Origin: Caldimicrobium thiodismutans
Lineage (GTDB): Bacteria > Desulfobacterota > Thermodesulfobacteria > Thermodesulfobacteriales > Thermodesulfobacteriaceae
Assembly (NCBI RefSeq): GCF_001548275.1
Contig: NZ_AP014945.1
Location: 390,001-422,000 of the forward strand
DNA length: 32,000 nt
Direction of reading: 5' to 3'
Shown here in pieces: positions 4,986 to 24,272 of this stretch (within the stretch, counting starts at the first letter, position 1; each line of letters starts with the position of its first letter). The notes beneath the pieces were generated by a model. The model did no database searches. It was not told the DNA's origin and saw only the letters and a program-made list of their open reading frames with translations. The position numbers were made by a program, and so were the translations under genes.

Positions 4986-5013
4986 AAGATACTCATTTTA
5001 AAAGATTTGTCAA
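4986..5013 (-). promoter_or_regulatory. Putative sigma70-type promoter for the 4941..1062 operon
   Basis: Read on the minus strand: TTGACA (5013-5008), a 16-nt spacer, then TATCTT (4991-4986). The -35 box lies 5 nt from the left terminus of repeat copy 1. Confidence 0.45.
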
Positions 5014-5018
5014 TTCTA

Positions 5019-5298
5019 TGTATGCGTCCTTATCTTTCCTGCTTACGCAGGCAGGTGAGAATTAATATAGTAGGGATAAACCTATGTGTTTGCCCATTAT
5101 GTGTTCCTCGTAATGCCTCATTTAATTTTCTAAAGGAAATTATTTTACTTTCCCCTCCTTTTTATGATCAATTTTTTCCCGATAATAATTCCCTTTTTTC
5201 TATAAATATGCTCTCTCAAGCATTTTCTGATAACTCCTTATCTTTCTGCAAAGCTCCTTTACCTTTCCACCTATTCTTTCCTTGAAATAAGCTTTGTG
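5019..5298 (+). repeat. Intergenic mosaic element, copy 1 (long and degenerate)
   Basis: It starts TGTATGCGTCCTTATCTTT. It contains a degenerate B hairpin (GTAGGGATAAACCTATGTGTTTGCCC, 5071-5096), a CT-rich tail (CTTTACCTTTCCACCTATTCTTTCCTTGAAATAA) and a truncated right end. Confidence 0.7.
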
Positions 5299-5453
5299 AA
5301 AGAACTAAGCTCTTAAATTCAAGATGGGCGAAATAGATAGTTTTTTCGTGAAGGTTCAAGAGAGGAGCTGAGATTTTTTATATGAGGCAACGATAAATTT
5401 CGAATAGATTTTTAATGAGGCAATTCGTCCTTTGCATTATTGGGGCAGATATT

Positions 5454-5981
5454 TTATTTTTTTAGTTTTTCCAAAAGTAAAAAGATGGCAACTCCAAAGG
5501 CTATGGAGACATTTAGGGATTCCTTTTTGCCAAAAAGGGGTATCTCTAAGATTAAATCCGAGGCTGAAAGAGCTGCTTCTGAGACACCGGAGACCTCGTT
5601 TCCTATAATGAGGGCTAAAGGGAAATGCTCTTTTTTTATTTCCTGCACCGGGATGCTTTGATTTGTAATTTCTAAGGAGGCTATTGTGTAGCCCTTATTT
5701 TTAAAAGCCTCTATTGTGCTTAGCACGGAAAGGGCATACTCCCAGGGCACGGATTTAGTTGTGCCAAGGGCAGTCTTTTCTATTCCACCGTGAGGAGGAG
5801 TCGGAGTAATTCCGCAGAGAATAAGCTTTTCAATATGGGCACACTCTGCCGTGCGAAAGATGGAGCCTACATTATAGGCGCTTCTTAAATTATCAAGAAT
5901 TGCTACTACTGGAAAAGGTTGCGCTCTCCTGTTTTTACTCCAGCGAGCCAGAATTTCATCTGATTCTAATTTCTTTAGCAT
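5454..5981 (-). CDS. SpoU/TrmH-family RNA 2'-O-methyltransferase
   Basis: 175 aa with SPOUT motifs (LDNLRSAYNVGSIFRTAE; ALIIGNEVSGVS; IPLFGKKESLNVSIAFGVAIF). Confidence 0.9.
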   Translation of the reverse strand: MLKKLESDEILARWSKNRRAQPFPVVAILDNLRSAYNVGSIFRTAECAHIEKLILCGITPTPPHGGIEKTALGTTKSVPWEYALSVLSTIEAFKNKGYTIASLEITNQSIPVQEIKKEHFPLALIIGNEVSGVSEAALSASDLILEIPLFGKKESLNVSIAFGVAIFLLLEKLKK

Positions 5982-6439
5982 GCACCATAGGGAATTGAGG
6001 AGTGATGGGCAATAATTTTTATTAAACCCCCTTCAAATTTTTTATAGACAAAGGTAAACTCAACATCCCTTGCTTTCTCGGAATTTTTCAAATAAAAGAG
6101 ATATTTTCCCTGAGATAGAGCTATGTCCTGAAAATATAGCTCTCCTGCTATTTCAAATTCAATCTCCCTAAAATTTTGCAGAGCAAACCCAATGTCTTCA
6201 GGATATTTTCCACCTATAAAATAGGAAAGAGCTGATTCAAAATTTAATCTAAAGGGCACTTCTCTGGCTAAGGTAGGTTTAAAAAGCACTATTCCATAAT
6301 CGTATGCATAAAGCCTTTTTAAAAAATTTTCTGCAAGTTCCCTGTAATTCTGCCCCATCTGATAGGCCTTACTTATCTCAAGAATCCCTTTTTTCCATTC
6401 TTCTTGAATCTTGCGAATCTCTTCAGGGGTAATACTCAT
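5975..6439 (-). CDS. NTF2/SnoaL-like fold protein (function unknown)
   Basis: A 154-aa ORF with GGAGG upstream. Size and sequence pattern resemble DUF4440/SnoaL-like proteins. This assignment is tentative. Confidence 0.6.
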   Translation of the reverse strand: MSITPEEIRKIQEEWKKGILEISKAYQMGQNYRELAENFLKRLYAYDYGIVLFKPTLAREVPFRLNFESALSYFIGGKYPEDIGFALQNFREIEFEIAGELYFQDIALSQGKYLFYLKNSEKARDVEFTFVYKKFEGGLIKIIAHHSSIPYGAC

Positions 6440-9401: not shown

Positions 9402-10565
9402 TTATCTGTCAAAACCAGCAAGTTCCTTAATTTTTTCCACCATATCTACCTTTTCCCAATTAAATTCAGGCTCAGGTCTTCCAAAGTGTCCGTAGCAGGC
9501 AGTTTTTCTAAAAATGGGGCGCCTTAAGTTAAGATAATCAATCATGTGTTTGGGCCTGAAGCAAAAGAGTTTGTTTATGATCTCAAGGATTTTATCAACG
9601 GGTATAGCCTCTGTCCCATAGGTATTAACATTTATAGCTAAGGGTTCCGGAACTCCAATGGCATAAGCAACCTGAACTTCAAGCTCCCGGGCTACTCCTG
9701 CTGAAACAAGATTCTTGGCTACATAACGGGCATAATAAGAAGGAGTTCTATCAACCTTAGTGGCATCCTTTCCAGAAAAGGCTCCTCCTCCATGGTGGCC
9801 CCTTCCTCCGTAGGTATCAACAATTATTTTTCTTCCTGTCATTCCACAGTCTGCTAAGGGACCTCCGATAACAAATCTTCCAGTTCCATTGATTATAATT
9901 TTGGTATCTGATCTTAAGTGTTCAGAGGCAATGACCTTTTTGATCACCTCTTCATAAATAGCCTCTCTGAGTTCTTTTAAGGTAACGGTTGGATCATGTT
10001 GAGCAGCAATGACAACCGTGTGAACATCAACAGGGCGTCTATCCTCATATCTTACAGTTACTTGCGTTTTCCCATCTGGCCTGAGGAAGGGGAGTATTCC
10101 CTTTTTTCTAACCTCTGCAAGCCTCATGGCCAGTTTATGGGCATACCATATAGGCATGGGCATAAGATCAGGGGTCTCATCACAGGCATAACCAAACATC
10201 AACCCCTGGTCTCCAGCTCCAATCTCTCCATCCCTCTCAATTCCCATGGCAATATCAGGGCTCTGGCGGTCAATACTAATTAAAACAGCACAGGTTTGAT
10301 AGTCAAAACCAAGATCTGAGTGGTTATAACCTATTTCTTTGACTACACCTCTGGCAATAGTCGGATAATCCACACGGGCCTCTGTGGTAATCTCACCAGC
10401 AATGAGAATCATCCCTGTGTTCACCAGCGTCTCACATGCCACTCGGGCATAAGGATCCTTTTCCAAAATGGCATCAAGCACAGCATCAGAGATCTGATCT
10501 GCAACCTTATCCGGATGCCCCTCGGTTACAGATTCTGAGGTAAAAAGAAAGTTTTTTACAAGCAT
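9402..10565 (-). CDS. metK: S-adenosylmethionine synthetase
   Basis: 387 aa with the motifs [33 protein letters not shown] and [16 protein letters not shown]. Confidence 0.98.
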
Positions 10566-10601
10566 TTTTTAGCCCTCCTTCCACAAAATTCTTGAAAAAC
10601 A

Positions 10602-10629
10602 AATTTACTATAAATTTTTTTATTATCAA
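10602..10629 (-). promoter_or_regulatory. Putative promoter of the metK-ahcY-umuD-like-polY-NTF2-spoU gene string
   Basis: Read on the minus strand: TTGATA (10629-10624), a 16-nt spacer, then TAAATT (10607-10602). The -35 box lies 6 nt from the left terminus of repeat copy 2. Confidence 0.45.
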
Positions 10630-10635
10630 CTCAAC

Positions 10636-10848
10636 TGTATGCGTCCATATCTTTTAGGACTCTATAGGATTTTTTCTACCACTTAGTTGTTGGAAAAGGA
10701 ACCTGTATTTTGTAAAGTCAAACCTCTGTATTTGCCCTCTTTTGGCAAATCTATGTGTTTGCCTGTTAATTAAAATATCCTTCTAAATCTAATTTAGCAC
10801 ATCTCTTAAACATCCAATGTTTAAGAGAGCTTTTTTAGTGCATTATGC
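10636..10848 (+). repeat. Intergenic mosaic element, copy 2 (right boundary uncertain)
   Basis: It starts TGTATGCGTCCATATCTTTTAGGAC. The A module resembles copy 6 (..TATAGGATTTTTTCTACCACT). The B region is at 10730-10763 (ATTTGCC..GGCAAATCTATGTGTTTGCC). Clear homology ends near 10763. A possible degenerate right end is CATTATGCCAAAAAA at 10841-10855. Confidence 0.65.
10802..10836 (+). terminator. Rho-independent-type terminator on the plus strand, with no plus-strand ORF upstream
   Basis: An 11-12 bp perfect stem (CTCTTAAACAT at 10803-10813 pairing with ATGTTTAAGAG at 10817-10827), loop CCA, then AGC and TTTTTT (10831-10836). The minus-strand reading has no downstream T-tract. Confidence 0.6.
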
Positions 10849-10954
10849 CAAAAAATCTAAGATTTGTTCAATCAGGAGACCTGGTTTAAATTTTAAAAAG
10901 AATTAAGTAAGAGTCACAAATTGAAAGATATGCAATTTATAATGAGAGGGATTT

Positions 10955-10973
10955 CCCCCTCATTAAGAGGGGG
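10955..10973 (-). terminator. GC-rich stem-loop downstream of rubrerythrin (candidate terminator)
   Basis: CCCCCTC-ATTAA-GAGGGGG lies about 30 nt after the rbr stop. An alternative pairing with GAGAGGG (10944-10950) is possible. No clear U-tract follows on the minus strand. Confidence 0.35.
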
Positions 10974-11002
10974 CAGTATGTTTATCAAAGAAACTTGAAA
11001 AG

Positions 11003-11503
11003 TTAAAATTTTTTAAATTTTTCACCCGGGACCCCACAAATTGGACATCTTTCTGGTGCTTTACCTACCGCTGTATGTCCACAGGTGGGGCAGATGTAGA
11101 TATCTCCGATATCAAGGTCTCTTCCCATTTTAACGGATTCCTTGGCCTCAGCAAAAAGAGCAGCATGGATCTTTTCAGCCTCAATAGCATAATGAAAGGC
11201 TCTTAAGGCTTGCTTTTCTCCTTGTAATTCAGCTACAGCTTTATAAGCAGGATACATCTCCTCAACCTCAAAGTTTTCCCCTTTAATAGCGGTCTCAAGA
11301 TTATCCAGCGTTCCATTTCCATTTAGGGCTTTCAAGTGGTTTTCAGCATGCACCCTTTCGGCATAAGCAACTGCTCTAAAAAGTCTTGCAATCTGAGGAA
11401 AGCCCTCTGCCTCAGCCTTATCCGCAAAAATCAAGTACTTTACACAGGCCTGAGATTCACCAGCTAAAGCTCCCTTTAAACACTCCTTTGTCATCTCCTT
11501 CAT
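11003..11503 (-). CDS. rbr: Rubrerythrin
   Basis: 166 aa. It has a ferritin-like di-iron domain (E..E..H motifs: YAERVHAENH, AIEAEKIHAALF) and a C-terminal rubredoxin-like CPTCG...CPICG. GGAGG lies 7 nt upstream of the ATG. Confidence 0.95.
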   Translation of the reverse strand: MKEMTKECLKGALAGESQACVKYLIFADKAEAEGFPQIARLFRAVAYAERVHAENHLKALNGNGTLDNLETAIKGENFEVEEMYPAYKAVAELQGEKQALRAFHYAIEAEKIHAALFAEAKESVKMGRDLDIGDIYICPTCGHTAVGKAPERCPICGVPGEKFKKF

Positions 11504-11532
11504 AATTACACCTCCGAATTTAATTTAAAACT

Positions 11533-11560
11533 ATTATAAAAAGAAAATTATTTTTGTCAA
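11533..11560 (-). promoter_or_regulatory. Consensus sigma70-type promoter of rubrerythrin
   Basis: Read on the minus strand: perfect TTGACA (11560-11555), a 16-nt spacer, then perfect TATAAT (11538-11533). The -35 box lies 5 nt from the left terminus of repeat copy 3. Confidence 0.75.
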
Positions 11561-11565
11561 TAGTT

Positions 11566-11816
11566 TGTATGCAGCCATATCTTTTGAGACTTAAAATTTA
11601 CCTCTTTTGGTAGACAAATTGGATTTTTTTAGTAGGGGCAAAACTATGTGTTTGCCCCTTTGTGGCGTTTGCCTGTTATATGTTCCTTTAAGTTATTGGG
11701 CAGACAGACAAAGATTTGGCAGACACGCAAGGGCCTCCCTCTACTCTCCCCTTTCACCTCTCCCCTTTCACCTCTTATCACCCTTTATTTTTCTTGAAAT
11801 AATCAGAACCTATGCG
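11566..11816 (+). repeat. Intergenic mosaic element, copy 3
   Basis: It starts TGTATGCAGCCATATCTTTTGAGAC. The A module is ~88% identical to copy 4 over ~66 nt. The B hairpin is GGGGCAAA..TTTGCCCC (11635-11658), with a second GTTTGCC at 11667-11673. It also has a GGCAGACACGCAAGG module, a CT-rich tail with a perfect 14-nt tandem duplication (11746-11773), and the right end CTTGAAATAATCAGAACCTATGCG. Confidence 0.85.
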
Positions 11817-11904
11817 AAAAGACCACTTTTTCCAAAATAATCTGATAAATCTGACAAAGGAATTCTATACTTTTCAACTAAAACTTGTAAATTTTTTGCT
11901 TCTC

Positions 11905-12654
11905 TTATAATCCTTCTTCTCTATCAGGGACATCAGTGTAAAAGGTTATCTCAAGACTTTTGCAAAAGTTCTTTGCCTCACGATCAAGTATAGGAGAAAT
12001 AATTATCTTTCTTGTGACTTTTTTCCCTTCTTTTTTCTCAAAAAACTTTACCTTTCTCTCAAAAAGCAAAACATCTCCAGGACTAACGGAAGATTTAATC
12101 TCAGCTACAATAAGCTCACCATCTCTAATAATAAGGTCAATTTCAACCCTTTTTCCAGGAAAACCTTCAAAGACCTCACCTTCTAAATCAGTTGTTTCAT
12201 AATGTTCTACCTTAACCCCAAAGGTTTCCTCAAGAAGCCCTTTTACTGCATTGCGAAAGGTTTTTTCTGATTTAATTCCCCATCTTGCCCCGAGGGCACC
12301 AATCTGCACATCCTGTCTCTTTCTTAAGGCAAGGATTTCTTCCATCAGGATTTTATTGCCTTGAGAGAGTTCTTCAAGCTTCTTTGAATGCTCTTTCAGT
12401 ATCTGAGAATGTTCCTCAAGCCTCTTTGAATGTTCTTCCCATCTTTTTTCACTCTCAATTCTTAGGTTCTTAATCTCCTCTAAAAGGGCTTTAATCTCTT
12501 CTTCAGTAGTTTTTTTGTCTGCAAAATTTTCTTTGAAAAGACTTGCTACATAATCCTTAAGAAGGGGATCTTCCTTTAAAAGCTCGGGGAGATCCCGAAT
12601 TAACATTTCCTTTAAAGCTACTTTGGATATGATACTTTTTTTAGCCCTTTGCAT
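11905..12654 (-). CDS. DUF3782-type protein: N-terminal coiled coil + C-terminal PD-(D/E)XK nuclease-like domain
   Basis: 249 aa. It has heptad-like repeats (EEHSKRLEEHSQILKEHSKKLEEL) and a C-terminal D...E-x-K signature (VEIDLIIRDGELIVAEIKSS). The family assignment is from memory of similar multi-copy proteins in thermophiles. Confidence 0.75.
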   Translation of the reverse strand: MQRAKKSIISKVALKEMLIRDLPELLKEDPLLKDYVASLFKENFADKKTTEEEIKALLEEIKNLRIESEKRWEEHSKRLEEHSQILKEHSKKLEELSQGNKILMEEILALRKRQDVQIGALGARWGIKSEKTFRNAVKGLLEETFGVKVEHYETTDLEGEVFEGFPGKRVEIDLIIRDGELIVAEIKSSVSPGDVLLFERKVKFFEKKEGKKVTRKIIISPILDREAKNFCKSLEITFYTDVPDREEGL

Positions 12655-12679
12655 AAAAAATTCCCCCCATTAATTCCTA

Positions 12680-12707
12680 AACTTAAAAGAAAAAGGAAAA
12701 AAAACAA
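12680..12707 (-). promoter_or_regulatory. Weak putative promoter of the DUF3782 gene
   Basis: Read on the minus strand: TTGTTT (12707-12702), a 16-nt spacer, then TAAGTT (12685-12680). The geometry relative to repeat copy 4 matches the other copies (6 nt offset), but both hexamers are poor. Confidence 0.3.
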
Positions 12708-12713
12708 GAGGGT

Positions 12714-12982
12714 TGTATAAGTCCATATCTTTCAAGATTTAAAATTTACCTCTTTTGGTAGATAAATTGGATTTTTTTTATCTTAAACTATAAAACCTTC
12801 CCTGTATAAATATTCTAAAACCTTTGGTAGGGATGAATGATTGTTTATCTCCCTGTCTATCCCAGGCAGATACATTCGACTCCAGTCGAATAATTTTAAT
12901 GGGGCAGACTCGTAAGGACTTCCCATACTCTCCCATCTCACCTTTTACCACCATTTTTCTTGTAAGGATATGAACTTATGCA
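12714..12982 (+). repeat. Intergenic mosaic element, copy 4 (best-preserved terminal inverted repeats)
   Basis: The left end TGTATAAGTCCATATCTTT matches the reverse complement of the right end, TGCATAAGTTCATATCCTT, at 16 of 19 positions. It has a degenerate B module (12828-12853), a private 8-bp hairpin ATTCGACT/AGTCGAAT (12874-12891), and a GGCAGACTCGTAAGG module shared only with copy 3. Confidence 0.88.
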
Positions 12983-12996
12983 GTTAGTCAAAACTT

Positions 12997-13716
12997 TTAA
13001 GAACTCAAAAATTGGGAGAGAAGTTCTGTTAGTTTGATAATTAGCTGTTCAGTAATTATCTTTCCCTTTTCTGGGGTGGCTTTAAGCGGATTTCCCCAGA
13101 TGCCAGAGGCCCAAAAGAGCTTTTTTTCAGGGACAACCTGATATTTAGGAAAGGCTGGATAATCCTCAAAGGCCTTATCAAGGGGCTTTACTAATTCATT
13201 TTTCAGATAAAGTATAAGAGAGGTTTCCCACTCTCCTGCATGGGAATCATTCTCAGGGATCCCCAGTTCTTTTAAAGTATCCTTAAGTAAATTGATAATA
13301 TCTGCTACAAAAAAGCGTGTTTGCGGATATTTTTCTATGAATTGTTCTGCGGTATCAATAATAAAGGCATTGTGCGTCCCTCCAGCATGTCCAGAAAGAA
13401 TGATGAATTTTCTCAATCCCTGACGATAGAAGCTTTCTAAAAGATCAAAGAGCAAGCTTTTAAGGGTTTCACCGCGAAGAGAAAGAGTGCCTGGTATATC
13501 CCGGGTGCTTCTGCAGAGGCCAAAATAGAGAGGAGGAGCAAGAAAGACCTCTATTCTCTTTATTACTCTTTTGCAGATTTCGTAAATAGTGAAAAGGTCT
13601 GTTCCTAAGGGGAGATGGGGCCCGTGGGCCTCAATTGACCCCACTGGAAGAATAACCCCCTTGATCCTTTTAGAGAGCTCTTCAAACTCATAAGAGGTTA
13701 ATTCTTCAATTTGCAT
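12997..13716 (-). CDS. Creatininase-family amidohydrolase
   Basis: 239 aa with the motifs GSIEAHGPHLPLGTD, LSGHAGG and a downstream SHAGEWETS, typical of the creatinine amidohydrolase family. Confidence 0.88.
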   Translation of the reverse strand: MQIEELTSYEFEELSKRIKGVILPVGSIEAHGPHLPLGTDLFTIYEICKRVIKRIEVFLAPPLYFGLCRSTRDIPGTLSLRGETLKSLLFDLLESFYRQGLRKFIILSGHAGGTHNAFIIDTAEQFIEKYPQTRFFVADIINLLKDTLKELGIPENDSHAGEWETSLILYLKNELVKPLDKAFEDYPAFPKYQVVPEKKLFWASGIWGNPLKATPEKGKIITEQLIIKLTELLSQFLSS

Positions 13717-13779
13717 ATTTTTAATATACTGGGAAAACTTGAAAATTGGAAGATAATTTTTAAATTTGAGGATAAAAAG

Positions 13780-16700
13780 ATGAGATTCAAAAGGCTCTCA
13801 GGGGTTAATCCCTCTTTTTTAGGGTATTATTTAGGGGCAGAGAAAGTGCCTGATCTTGATGGATATACTTTGATTGCCCTTTTTCCCAATCAAGAAAGTG
13901 CCAAGGACTTTTTATCTGTTTACAAGGCCTTTTCGCAGAATAGGGCATCTTTTTATCCTGCCTTAGGGATCCCTCCCTTTGCAGAAGTCTTTACCCTCAA
14001 TGAAGAAGAAAGGGAACGCCTTAAGGTCCTGTGGGAGCTTCCTACTTTAAAGGTAATTGCCCTTGAGATCAAAAGTTTTCTCAGAAGAACCATTTCCAGA
14101 GAACAGCTTAAGCTAAATTATCTGTATCTTTTGCCAGGTGAAAAGATTGATCGTGAGACCTTGATTGAAGACATAGTAAGACTTGGTTATGAACGGGTAG
14201 GGGTGGTTAGAAGTAAAGGAGAGTTTACCTCTAAGGGAGCAGTTCTTGATCTCTTTTCTCCTCAGAATGATTATCCCACAAGAATTGAATTTTTTGGAGA
14301 TGAGGTTATAAGCCTTAAAGCCTTTGATCCTGAAACTCAGAGGAGGCTTGGATATCTTGAGGAATTAAGTATCCTTCCCGCAAGGGAACTTTTTTTTCCA
14401 AAGGATTCCCAGCCTCTTTATGAAAAAATCTTAAGCTATAAGGATAAACTTTCTGAAAAAAGAATATCCGAACTTTTGCAAATGGTAGAAAATAAAATAA
14501 TCCTTGAAAATCCTGACTTTCTTCTTCCCCTCCTTTGGGAAGATTTGAAACTTTTGCCTGAAAATCTCGGAGAAAAGATCTGTTTTGTCCTCTTTGAAAG
14601 AGAAAAACTCTTAAAAGAGATGGAAGTTTTTTGGGATAGAATCTATAATTCTGCCAAGAAGGCTAAGGAGAAAGAAAGGCTATTAGTGGCTGAGGAAAAA
14701 CTTTATGCAACTATTGAAGAAGTAACGGCCTTTTTTGATAGATATCCAACTCTTGAGGCCTTTGAGCTTCCTCTGGCTGACAGAGATACCCTTTTATTTC
14801 CTTTGCAGAAATATGAAATTTCCCGGGAAGCTTCCCGGCTTGAACAGGCCTTTAATTTTCTTAAAGAACACCTTTCTGCAGGAAGAGAAATTTTTTTATT
14901 TGTGCAAGATGAAAAAAATTCCAGGGCTATTCTTGATGGTTTAAGATACAGGGGTATTGAGGATTTTGATCATTTGAGCATTCTTACAGGAGACCTCCAA
15001 GATGGTTTCTTTTTTCCAGATAAAGGACTTGTCCTTACCTCAGATTTTGAACTCTTTGGAAAGAGAATTTTTAAAAAAGAGGAAAAACAAGCCTTGAAAC
15101 GGGTCAGGGGCTACTTTAGAAAGTTTGAGGACCTCAAACCCGGTGATTATGTGGTGCATAAGCTTCATGGTATAGGAAGGTTTCAGGGATTGATCTCACT
15201 TAAAGTGGATGGTTTTGAGGGGGAGTTTCTTCAGATTGAATATGAAGGGGGAGACAAACTTTATGTGCCTGTGACCAAACTTGAAGAACTCTATCCCTAT
15301 GTGGGAGTGGAAGAAAAGATTCCCCAATTAGATAAACTGGGGAAAAAGACCTTTCTTAAAAAGAGAAAGGAAGTAGAAAAGAAATTAACTGAGGTGGTTG
15401 AAGAAATCCTGAGGCTCTATGCTGAAAGAAGAACCCTTAAGGGATTTTCTATTCCTGTGGATAATCTCTCCTATGCAGAATTTTCCCAGACCTTCCCCTA
15501 TGAAGAGACCCCGGATCAGCTCTCAGCTATTGAAGAAGTCCTGGAGGATCTTCAAAGTTCAAAGCCAATGGAAAGGCTTGTGGTAGGAGATGTAGGCTTT
15601 GGAAAAACGGAGGTAGCTCTGAGGGCCATTTTTGTTACTGCAAGGGCAGGAAAACAAGTAGCTTGCCTTACTCCCACAACTCTTCTTGCTGAACAACATT
15701 ACCGCAATTTTAAAGAAAGACTGGATTCCTTTGGTATAAAAGTGGGGATTCTCTCACGGTTAAGAAGTGAAGGAGAACAAAGGGCTGTTCTCAAAGCCTT
15801 GCAAGAAGGTGAGATTCAGGTAGTAGTTGGGACCCATAGACTTCTTTCTAAGGATGTCCAGTTCAAAGACCTTGGACTTCTTGTAATTGATGAAGAGCAC
15901 CGCTTTGGAGTAAGGCAAAAGGAGCGTTTAAAACAACTTAAAAAGGCTGTAAAGGTTCTATCTCTTTCAGCTACTCCTATTCCCAGGAGCCTTCAATTAA
16001 GCCTTCTTGGAATTTTTGATCTTTCTTTGATTGAAACACCTCCTTTGGGAAGAAAAAGTATTAAGACCTTTCTTACCCCCTTTGATCCTGAAGTCATAAA
16101 AGCAGGCCTTGAGGAGGAGCTTTCAAGAGGAGGTCAGGTTTATTTCGTTCATCCACGCATTCAGGGTCTTACAAGCCTTGCAAAATTTCTTGAGAAACTT
16201 ATGCCCTCAGCCCATATTGAGATTGTGCACGGTCAGATGGATTCATCTCAACTTGAAAGGGCTATCTTTAATTTTTTAGAGAGGAAGGTAGATATCCTTG
16301 TCTGCACCCCTATCATTGGGAGTGGAATTGATATTCCTTCAGCTAATACTATTTTTATCAATCGGGCAGACATGTTTGGACTTGCGGATATTTATCAACT
16401 TAGAGGAAGGGTAGGGCGGGGACAGGAAACAGCCTATTGTTATCTTCTTGTGCCAGATCTAAAAGGTTTAACAGAAAATGCTCAGAAGAGATTAAAGGCC
16501 CTTATGAAGTTTGTTGAACTTGGCTCAGGTTTTAAACTCTCTTTAAGTGATCTAAAGATAAGAGGTGCAGGGGAGCTTCTCGGAATAAATCAATCAGGAC
16601 ACATCAATAAAGTGGGCTATGAACTCTATCTGGAACTCCTTGAGAACACCATTCGTAGTTTAAAGGGGGAGGAGATTGAGGATTGGGAACCTGAGGTTAA

Positions 16701-20128: not shown

Positions 20129-20244
20129 TGTATGTGTCCATATCTTTATTTATGATGAAATGTATATGGTTTCACATTATTTCTTCCTTTCACCTCTTAC
20201 CTCTTCCAACCTTTCTTTTTCTTGTAAGGATCTGAACTTATGCA
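20129..20244 (+). repeat. Intergenic mosaic element, copy 5 (minimal version, lacks the B hairpin)
   Basis: TGTATGTGTCCATATCTTT ... CTTTCACCTCTTACCTCTTCC ... TTTTTCTTGTAAGGATCTGAACTTATGCA. The ends match as inverted repeats at 14 of 20 positions. Confidence 0.85.
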
Positions 20245-24128: not shown

Positions 24129-24272
24129 TGTGTAGGCCCATATCTTTTGAGACTTATGAGGATTTTTACTACTACTTTTATTGCTTGCCTTTGCAGATTT
24201 ATGTAGGGGCAAACCTATGTGTTTGCCCTCTTACAACCCTTCCTTTTTCTTGTAAGGATCTGAACTTATGCA
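24129..24272 (+). repeat. Intergenic mosaic element, copy 6 (compact A-B-C version)
   Basis: TGTGTAGGCCCATATCTTTTGAGAC ... perfect B hairpin GGGCAAAC-CTATGT-GTTTGCCC (24207-24228) ... CTTACAA-N13-TTGTAAG stem ... GGATCTGAACTTATGCA. Confidence 0.88.

Follow-up and report, generated by a model that had tools for sequence, protein, structure and literature searches.

The question raised by this locus is how a nuclease-like gene came to stand between two intergenic repeats that resemble each other far more than any others around them. The window, that is, the whole stretch of DNA analyzed, covers 32 kb of the genome of Caldimicrobium thiodismutans (strain TF1). The segment studied here (positions 11566-12982) consists of a repeat (copy 3 of six in the window), a gene coding for a 249-amino-acid (aa) protein with DUF3782 and PD-(D/E)XK domains (THC_0403), and a further repeat (copy 4); these limits, which are those of the initial annotation, coincide exactly with the outer termini of both repeats. 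Copies 3 and 4 are in direct orientation, and their left modules (11565-11630 and 12713-12778) align without gaps at 58 of 66 positions, while no other pair of left modules among the window copies exceeds 38/66, which makes these two by far the closest pair. The claim that two sister copies flank the gene in direct orientation was therefore confirmed together with its identity count, and only the single mismatch reported over the last 41 nucleotides (nt) requires a trivial correction (we counted two, and one over the last 40). Within the window, the sequences GGCAGACNCGYAAGG and TACTCTCCC are confined to copies 3 and 4, and the module GGCAGAC..CGYAAGG..TACTCTCCC is common to copies 3 and 4 alone among the window copies, also as described before. 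The neighboring genes on the same strand are those of rubrerythrin (11003-11503) and a creatininase-family protein (12997-13716), and both were recovered by a Pfam search, in agreement with the earlier assignment.

We consider, with a probability of roughly 55%, that the nuclease-like gene is a cassette in a family of repeats resembling miniature inverted-repeat transposable elements (MITEs) and that it was moved or duplicated by homologous recombination through these repeats. Acquisition or duplication through the repeats had been proposed in the initial annotation, and three observations back it, namely, a second copy of the unit, a relative in which the locus is free of the gene, and the presence of repeat sequence on both sides of the gene at no fewer than four of six paralog loci. 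In order to read the paralog loci (L001, L004, L005, L006, L021, and L022), we used a sister strain available as a metagenome-assembled genome (MAG; GCA_017880035.1, ca. 97% DNA identity), and gene order in TF1 was taken from the adjacency of GenBank accessions. The rubrerythrin locus of the sister strain is collinear with window positions 10501-13800 at 97.3% identity, both repeats included. In addition, this strain has a second copy of the whole unit, where window positions 11566-12981 align with positions 11088-9648 of L001 (96.9%), between an aminotransferase gene and a tRNA cluster. The homology ends at the right terminus of copy 4 and 5 to 6 nt past the left terminus of copy 3. TF1 also has this second copy, as THC_1627 (BAU23991) follows the aminotransferase (BAU23990) and precedes S21 (BAU23992) in accession order.

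The gene-free locus was found in another species, Caldimicrobium sp. GCA_964436655.1 (L018), where the rubrerythrin gene adjoins the creatininase gene (81% identical). The two are 558 nt apart with no nuclease gene between them, and this gap consists of one related repeat element. The right end of this element and its junction with the 3′ end of the creatininase gene align with the outer side of copy 4, and the outer side of copy 3 aligns with the ATTTACC-like module and left end of the element, located beside the rubrerythrin promoter, itself orthologous. Given outer junctions orthologous to both ends of this element, the unit in TF1 appears to occupy a single ancestral element; judged from these alignments, the outer ends at the rubrerythrin locus predate the cargo. 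The aminotransferase locus of a relative likewise has no nuclease gene. The interior of the L018 element (5880-6200) contains repeated hairpins, tacgcaggctaaagcccgcggctacc / ggtagccgcaagcttaagcttgcg, which none of the TF1 copies has.

A search for paralogs gave six copies in the TF1 genome (THC_0343, THC_0403, THC_0711, THC_0947, THC_1521, and THC_1627), with 92 to 99% protein identity outside an array of heptads. The MAG has a counterpart for all six, four of which could be placed at the same locus by accession adjacency. Between paralogs, the ratio of nonsynonymous to synonymous substitution rates (dN/dS) was 0.08 to 0.19, with dS values of 0.08 to 0.25, and the dS of an ortholog pair was 0.082. 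These values indicate that all copies are under purifying selection and that some are as alike as orthologs of different strains. Furthermore, the dS between some paralogs (0.08) equals that of orthologs although their flanks are unalignable, which points to an exchange between paralogs limited to the cassette. Paralogs and orthologs differ almost only in the number of heptads. In THC_0403, the array is a 21-nt tandem repeat (12369..12438, minus strand) of 3.3 units encoding the heptads EHSKRLE / EHSQILK, and across the paralogs and orthologs of both strains, the number ranges from 2 to ca. 25 units in proteins of 235 to 385 aa. It differs between strains at most loci (249/256, 256/249, 277/263, 298/312, and 326/368 aa), so that the length of the coiled-coil stalk is hypervariable.

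A swap of cassettes between loci, another candidate, was rejected. It had been suggested by a protein 98% identical at another locus compared with 95% at the syntenic one, a difference that corresponds to the insertion or deletion of one heptad. At the DNA level, in a three-way comparison over 1412 columns, syntenic copies were 2.4% different and paralogous copies 3.2%, which suggests that the duplication is only slightly older than the split of the strains.

The recombination that we favor would begin between two flanking direct repeats and yield a circle made of the gene and one hybrid repeat; alternatively, ectopic gene conversion might be primed by the repeat ends, with the cassette as the template. 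The circle or template would then recombine with a resident repeat elsewhere. In the product, the gene would be preceded by the resident right side joined to the travelling left end and followed by the travelling right end joined to the resident left side, that is, two directly oriented, chimeric "sister" repeats would enclose it, and no target-site duplication would arise. In reverse, the reaction would delete the gene and leave a single repeat. Under this model, paralogs should share inner repeat ends only and, in some cases, show little coding divergence despite unalignable flanks. The homology between loci covers the gene, 60 nt upstream, usually a downstream spacer, and the inner repeat ends, with the outer repeat parts specific to each locus, as a crossover inside the repeats predicts. 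We favor recombination over transposition because a convincing target-site duplication was found at neither locus, because no transposase was seen in the ca. 100 kb of C. thiodismutans examined, and because the outer ends appear to predate the cargo. No insertion polymorphism was seen on comparing TF1 with the sister strain. On this reading, the repeats would be the vehicles and the nuclease the cargo, its stalk length being set by the variable heptad array.

The surroundings of the paralogs are less uniform than this scheme. The region upstream of the nuclease gene (ACCCTCTTGTTTTTTTTCC...GGGGGGAATTTTTT-ATG; 12655..12713, minus strand) has a weak or uncertain promoter and is conserved at each of the six paralog loci, and the 88-nt spacer 3′ of the gene (11817..11904, minus strand) accompanies it in 4/6. 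At the THC_0343 locus, the region upstream of the gene is bordered by the end of a short repeat, and a different repeat starts 18 nt past the stop codon. The THC_1521 locus has a truncated copy-5-like repeat upstream and, downstream, the 88-nt spacer followed by a left end at the serS promoter. At the THC_0711 locus, the contig of the sister strain breaks 52 nt upstream of the start codon, and the spacer and a copy-3-like repeat lie downstream.

This picture is also what would be expected if the nuclease family had spread in some other way and abundant, promoter-seeking repeats had inserted independently beside each copy. Of the eight intergenic gaps of ≥60 nt in the window, six contain a repeat, and copies 2 and 3, also directly oriented, flank rubrerythrin (11003-11503) in the same manner (10636-11816), so bracketing is not special to the nuclease gene. 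The left ends keep a distance of 5 to 7 nt from a downstream -35 box irrespective of the gene that follows, repeat subtypes and junctions vary across the paralog loci, one ortholog is almost repeat free (see below), and distant homologues have no repeats at all. However, independent insertion does not account for a whole unit duplicated at 97% identity with both repeats and their distinctive interiors, nor for the left-end variant GGACTTATRCA accompanying the gene in at least four loci. Moreover, in a count by hand that did not include L021, repeats occupied 8/8 gaps flanking four paralog loci versus 5/13 other gaps of ≥60 nt (hypergeometric P of ca. 0.006, or 0.02 with the two unit copies taken as one), although adding L021, with a left-end remnant upstream and only 10 nt downstream, would weaken this difference. 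We regard coincidental bracketing as unlikely.

Several observations weigh against recombination through the repeats, or at least against its having acted everywhere. Upstream of the THC_0947 ortholog, all that remains of a repeat is 10 nt of a left end, and mdh begins 10 nt past the stop codon of this ortholog; thus, repeats are not required around every copy. Junctions vary as well, with ca. 60 extra nt between the spacer and the repeat at the THC_0711 and THC_1521 loci, so some flanking repeats may be independent insertions. The direction of change at the rubrerythrin locus is unproven, and the relative may have lost the gene by recombination between direct repeats, which would still be repeat mediated. 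Around the unit at the TF1 rubrerythrin locus, there is a possible 3-nt AAC duplication (GACTAAC/TGCATAAG ... GCATACA/AACTATT). Finally, at the second locus, both repeats are shared up to their outer termini, for which composite transposition is simpler than a crossover within a resident element.

The last two points belong to a different explanation, a composite transposon, in which MITE-like repeats would provide the outer inverted termini and a transposase encoded elsewhere would move the 1.4-kb unit whole. Of what a composite transposon should display, two element copies flanking a cargo were found, as was the unit at another site bounded by its outer termini (the homology between the two loci ends no more than ca. 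6 nt from them). The imperfect inverted ends (13-16/19) and the TG...CA termini also fit. In contrast, a target-site duplication of the whole unit is missing at L001, which reads TCCCTTTA, the unit, and then TTGAAA, leaving only the possible AAC at the rubrerythrin locus, and the gene-free locus of Caldimicrobium sp. is not an element-free empty site, as it has one resident element. The orthology of the outer junctions to that element argues that, at the rubrerythrin locus, the gene went into an element already in place and did not bring both ends with it. Of the repeats, the other paralogs have no more than the inner ends in common, and neither a transposase in the ca. 100 kb examined nor insertion polymorphism between the two strains was seen. 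Hence, the true composite element that the initial annotation had offered as one form of its cassette was not borne out. The copy at the second locus, with both repeats shared to their termini, may have originated by composite transposition, which is improbable as the general explanation.

The repeats themselves are noncoding, modular, and 115 to 430 bp long, with six copies in the 32-kb window and further ones in the loci of the sister strain. They are built from a left end (TGTATGCGTCCATATCTTT), optional modules in the interior (a hairpin, GGGGCAAAC..GTTTGCCCC, is one of them), a stretch rich in TCACCT, and the right end CTTGTAAGGATCTGAACTTATGCA. The 19-nt left end has five matches in the window at ≤3 mismatches compared to 0.01 expected by chance, and the left end of the sixth copy has 4 mismatches. 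The left end matches the reverse complement of the right end at 13-16/19 positions in copies 4 and 5, while the terminal inverted repeat of copy 3 is weak (ca. 10/20 positions). Given these imperfect inverted ends and the termini 5′-TG...CA-3′, the repeats look like MITEs. No target-site duplication was consistent among the copies inspected, which include no filled-versus-empty pair for a single element.

Copy 3 (11566..11816, plus strand) is a complete MITE-like element composed of the left end TGTATGCAGCCATATCTTT, the module ATTTACCTCTTTTGGTAGA, the hairpin GGGGCAAAAC..GTTTTGCCCC, the module GGCAGACACGCAAGG..TACTCTCCC, a 14-nt tandem repeat, and the right end CTTGAAATAATCAGAACCTATGCG. The tandem repeat (CTCTCCCCTTTCAC) is present in 2.3 copies at 11744-11775, and a 16-nt length difference was observed at this point in the sister strain (L005, ca. 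5900-5950). Copy 4 (12714..12982, plus strand) is also complete, and its two ends, TGTATAAGTCCATATCTTT on the left and CTTGTAAGGATATGAACTTATGCA on the right, match as an inverted repeat at 16/19 positions; it has the ATTTACC and GGCAGAC..TACTCTCCC modules in common with copy 3 but a different interior. The other copies, all on the plus strand, are copy 1 (5019..5445, right boundary approximate), with an interior 91% identical to the element downstream of the sister-strain THC_0343 paralog, copy 2 (10636..10770), with no recognizable right end, copy 5 (20129..20244), a minimal element of 116 bp, and copy 6 (24129..24272), a context copy. An open reading frame of 92 aa within copy 1 (5007-5285, plus strand) is probably spurious.

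We also considered a structured RNA as the nature of these repeats and dropped it. Rfam searches gave no family matches, and left ends are more alike among themselves than they are to their own right ends. Compared with shuffled sequence, copy 4 folds through its paired termini (z = -3.6), whereas copy 3 does not fold (z = 0.1). With folding beyond the shuffled level confined to copy 4, we read the inverted ends as DNA sites rather than as an RNA stem.

A striking property of the repeats is their position. All six window copies have one orientation, and nearly every left terminus that faces a gene (..GCATACA) lies 5 to 7 nt upstream of a -35-like hexamer, both in the window and in the sister strain, with a TATAAT-like box ca. 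17 nt beyond and the downstream genes co-oriented. Such termini are found at 5019, 10636, 11566, 12714, 20129, and 24129 in the window and, at other loci, at L001 11070 and 20625, L004 6060, L006 4925 and 6099, L018 ca. 6252, and L022 ca. 1690. The clearest case is the rubrerythrin promoter (11533..11560, minus strand; TTGACA-16-TATAAT), which matches the consensus at 12/12 positions and starts 5 nt past the left terminus of copy 3. The genes owning these promoters are mutually unrelated (metK, rbr, the nuclease gene, a UvrD-family helicase gene, a LysM/NlpC-P60 protein gene, serS, a tRNA cluster, and nurA). Two left ends depart from this offset. One is a solo left end in direct contact with the following repeat (L001, 9621-9639), and the other is at the rubrerythrin locus of the sister strain, where 10 extra nt (GGGTGCAAAC) separate the left terminus of copy 3 from the -35 box (L005, 6120-6135) and were probably lost in TF1. 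The second unit copy (L001, 11088-11094) also has the RGGTGC found there (window counterpart, 11560-11566), so the duplicated segment reaches 5 to 6 nt past the recognizable terminus.

The repeats may either seek out promoters or help to form them. A regulatory explanation goes further and takes the left and right modules as, for example, the sites of a global regulator at promoters, the unit having been copied by ordinary segmental duplication. The strict position relative to -35 boxes, the uniform orientation, and the small palindrome in the left end (TATG-N4-CATA) suit this view, as does the lack of target-site duplications and of insertion polymorphism between strains. It does not agree with elements that are modular mosaics of 115 to 430 bp with variable interiors and paired inverted ends, with right ends located at the 3′ ends of genes, away from promoters, or with downstream genes as unrelated as metK, rbr, the UvrD-family helicase gene, serS, tRNAs, and nurA. 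We find it scarcely credible as an account of the unit. A promoter-like sequence within the 88-nt spacer (TTTACA-18-TAGAAT; 11891..11862, minus strand) is directed into copy 3 and might drive a repeat transcript.

The cargo gene is the open reading frame at 11905..12654 (minus strand), 100% identical to THC_0403. The protein has an N-terminal helical part, a long coiled coil (aa 47 to 117), and a PD-(D/E)XK domain (aa ca. 126 to 240). Two Pfam families were matched well above their gathering cutoffs, DUF3782 (PF12644; aa 90 to 163, 67.3 bits versus 24.4) and PDDEXK_10 (PF07788, formerly DUF1626, COG5493; aa 169 to 236, 64.9 bits versus 21.2), and we found no difference from these families at the family level. 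The nuclease domain (11935..12279, minus strand) has the candidate catalytic residues E130, D173 (12136-12138), E185 (12100-12102), and K187 (12094-12096). Among 41 homologues, E130 and K187 are invariant and D173 and E185 are ≥90% conserved; the E...D...(D/E)xK motif is intact in all paralogs. The AlphaFold model of the domain has the succession of helices (H) and strands (E) H130-145, E148-156, E168-177, E180-186, H192-209, and E215-219 (predicted local distance difference test values of 81 to 93), and the top Foldseek matches in the PDB were EndoMS/NucS (5gkj and 2vld), AF1548, and MspJI, all of them PD-(D/E)XK nucleases. Conservation, model, and structural matches together back the proposed fold and its catalytic D/E/K. 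By sequence and structure prediction, then, THC_0403 encodes a coiled-coil PD-(D/E)XK nuclease of the DUF3782/PDDEXK_10 family, a predicted activity that is probably directed at DNA.

The closest solved fold is that of NucS/EndoMS (Foldseek E value of 3e-4, probability of 1.0). However, the match to its NCBIfam model NF003270 was weak and C-terminal only (aa 173 to 240, 15.4 bits), far below the cutoff of 216, so THC_0403 is not a NucS ortholog; it also has a coiled coil in place of the N-terminal DNA-binding domain of NucS. The PD-(D/E)XK fold has been predicted before for DUF1626/PF07788, and its coiled-coil stalk has been noted, with no function reported (PMC1913061, PMC4786415) and no characterized member of the family (PMC1913061). 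The family is large, with 867 clusters at 50% identity matching at an E value of ≤0.001. PADLOC models derived from type III CRISPR accessory proteins gave weak-to-moderate matches (C3a181, E value of 7e-13; Csx1 'ARF+Nuclease', E value of 6e-5), and no CRISPR-cas or other defense partner genes were found beside any of the six paralog loci.

A nuclease embedded in repeats raises the question of whether it acts on them. Multicopy PD-(D/E)XK proteins that promote recombination are known, i.e., the Rpn/YhgA family. If THC_0403 and its paralogs cut or recombined repeat DNA, they could mobilize the repeats or home into them, and the units containing the gene would represent the autonomous form of the repeat family. 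In favor of this, the catalytic site is intact, all six copies are kept under strong purifying selection, and repeats surround the gene at four or more of the six loci. On the other hand, the gene lies outside both repeats and not between the termini of one element, repeats often occur away from any nuclease gene, and the gene-free site of the relative is a single element rather than a tandem junction usable as a homing site. Homologues with 52 to 60% identity in other organisms reside in compact loci with no flanking repeats, a metagenome scan returned only homologues at ≤60% identity, none of them repeat flanked, and no homologues of THC_0403 were found in viral, phage, and plasmid collections. 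The functional tie between nuclease and repeats on which the initial annotation had speculated is thus unsupported, because rubrerythrin is likewise bracketed, the THC_0947 ortholog is almost repeat free, and distant homologues do without repeats; we hold this coupling to be very improbable. Equally improbable is its boldest form, in which DUF3782/PD-(D/E)XK proteins would cut or recombine promoter-abutting repeats as a new nuclease-driven system of mobile cassettes with no DDE or tyrosine transposase, the stalk tuning spacing or the choice of partner.

With regard to known systems, all the pieces of the Caldimicrobium unit are of known kinds, namely, an uncharacterized Pfam nuclease family, MITE-like repeats, and duplication mediated by repeats. 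In the translocatable units of IS26 type and the Campbell-type integration of circles, a gene likewise moves together with one repeat and ends between two direct copies, and the reverse reaction of IS26-type units likewise leaves a single repeat copy. IS26 moves by its own transposase, whereas for the Caldimicrobium unit, the evidence points to homologous recombination by the host, with repeats that are noncoding and only 115 to 430 bp long. Integron mobilization units and TIME-COMP (composites bounded by MITEs) similarly have two miniature elements flanking a cargo and the unit at more than one site; unlike in these, neither a target-site duplication nor, in the sequence examined, a cognate insertion sequence was found for the Caldimicrobium unit, and its outer ends at the rubrerythrin locus appear older than the cargo. 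The Correia, ERIC, and REP repeats are also short, noncoding, abundant, and intergenic, with inverted ends near promoters. The Caldimicrobium repeats have no sequence relation to them (no Rfam match) and differ in their strictly single orientation, fixed offset of 5 to 7 nt from the -35 box, and modular interior. Rpn/YhgA-like (Transposase_31) nucleases are multicopy PD-(D/E)XK proteins too, with suspected mobility functions, but THC_0403 has no Pfam match to that family and a different architecture.

What is new is the combination of six near-identical, selected nuclease copies in one small genome, a hypervariable number of heptads, and repeats that abut promoters and all face one way. If the cassette indeed moves by recombination through the repeats, it would provide a clean natural example of short intergenic repeats serving as portable homology, by which a gene cassette multiplies in a 1.8-Mb thermophile genome. 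The mechanisms invoked are familiar, and current ideas are not overturned. The unusual expansion to six selected copies, nearly all of whose differences lie in the length of the coiled coil, marks an uncharacterized nuclease family for study, and the repeats may help to understand promoter architecture in Thermodesulfobacteriota.

Two further observations concern the genes around these loci in the sister strain. Directly upstream of a NurA-HerA (DUF87) gene pair is the THC_0711-like paralog, and two repeats lie between them (L022, 1790-4159). Lastly, metK, which is intact in the window (387 aa), is split in the MAG into two open reading frames of 168 and 181 aa (L005, 7138-8300), through either a frameshift or an assembly error.

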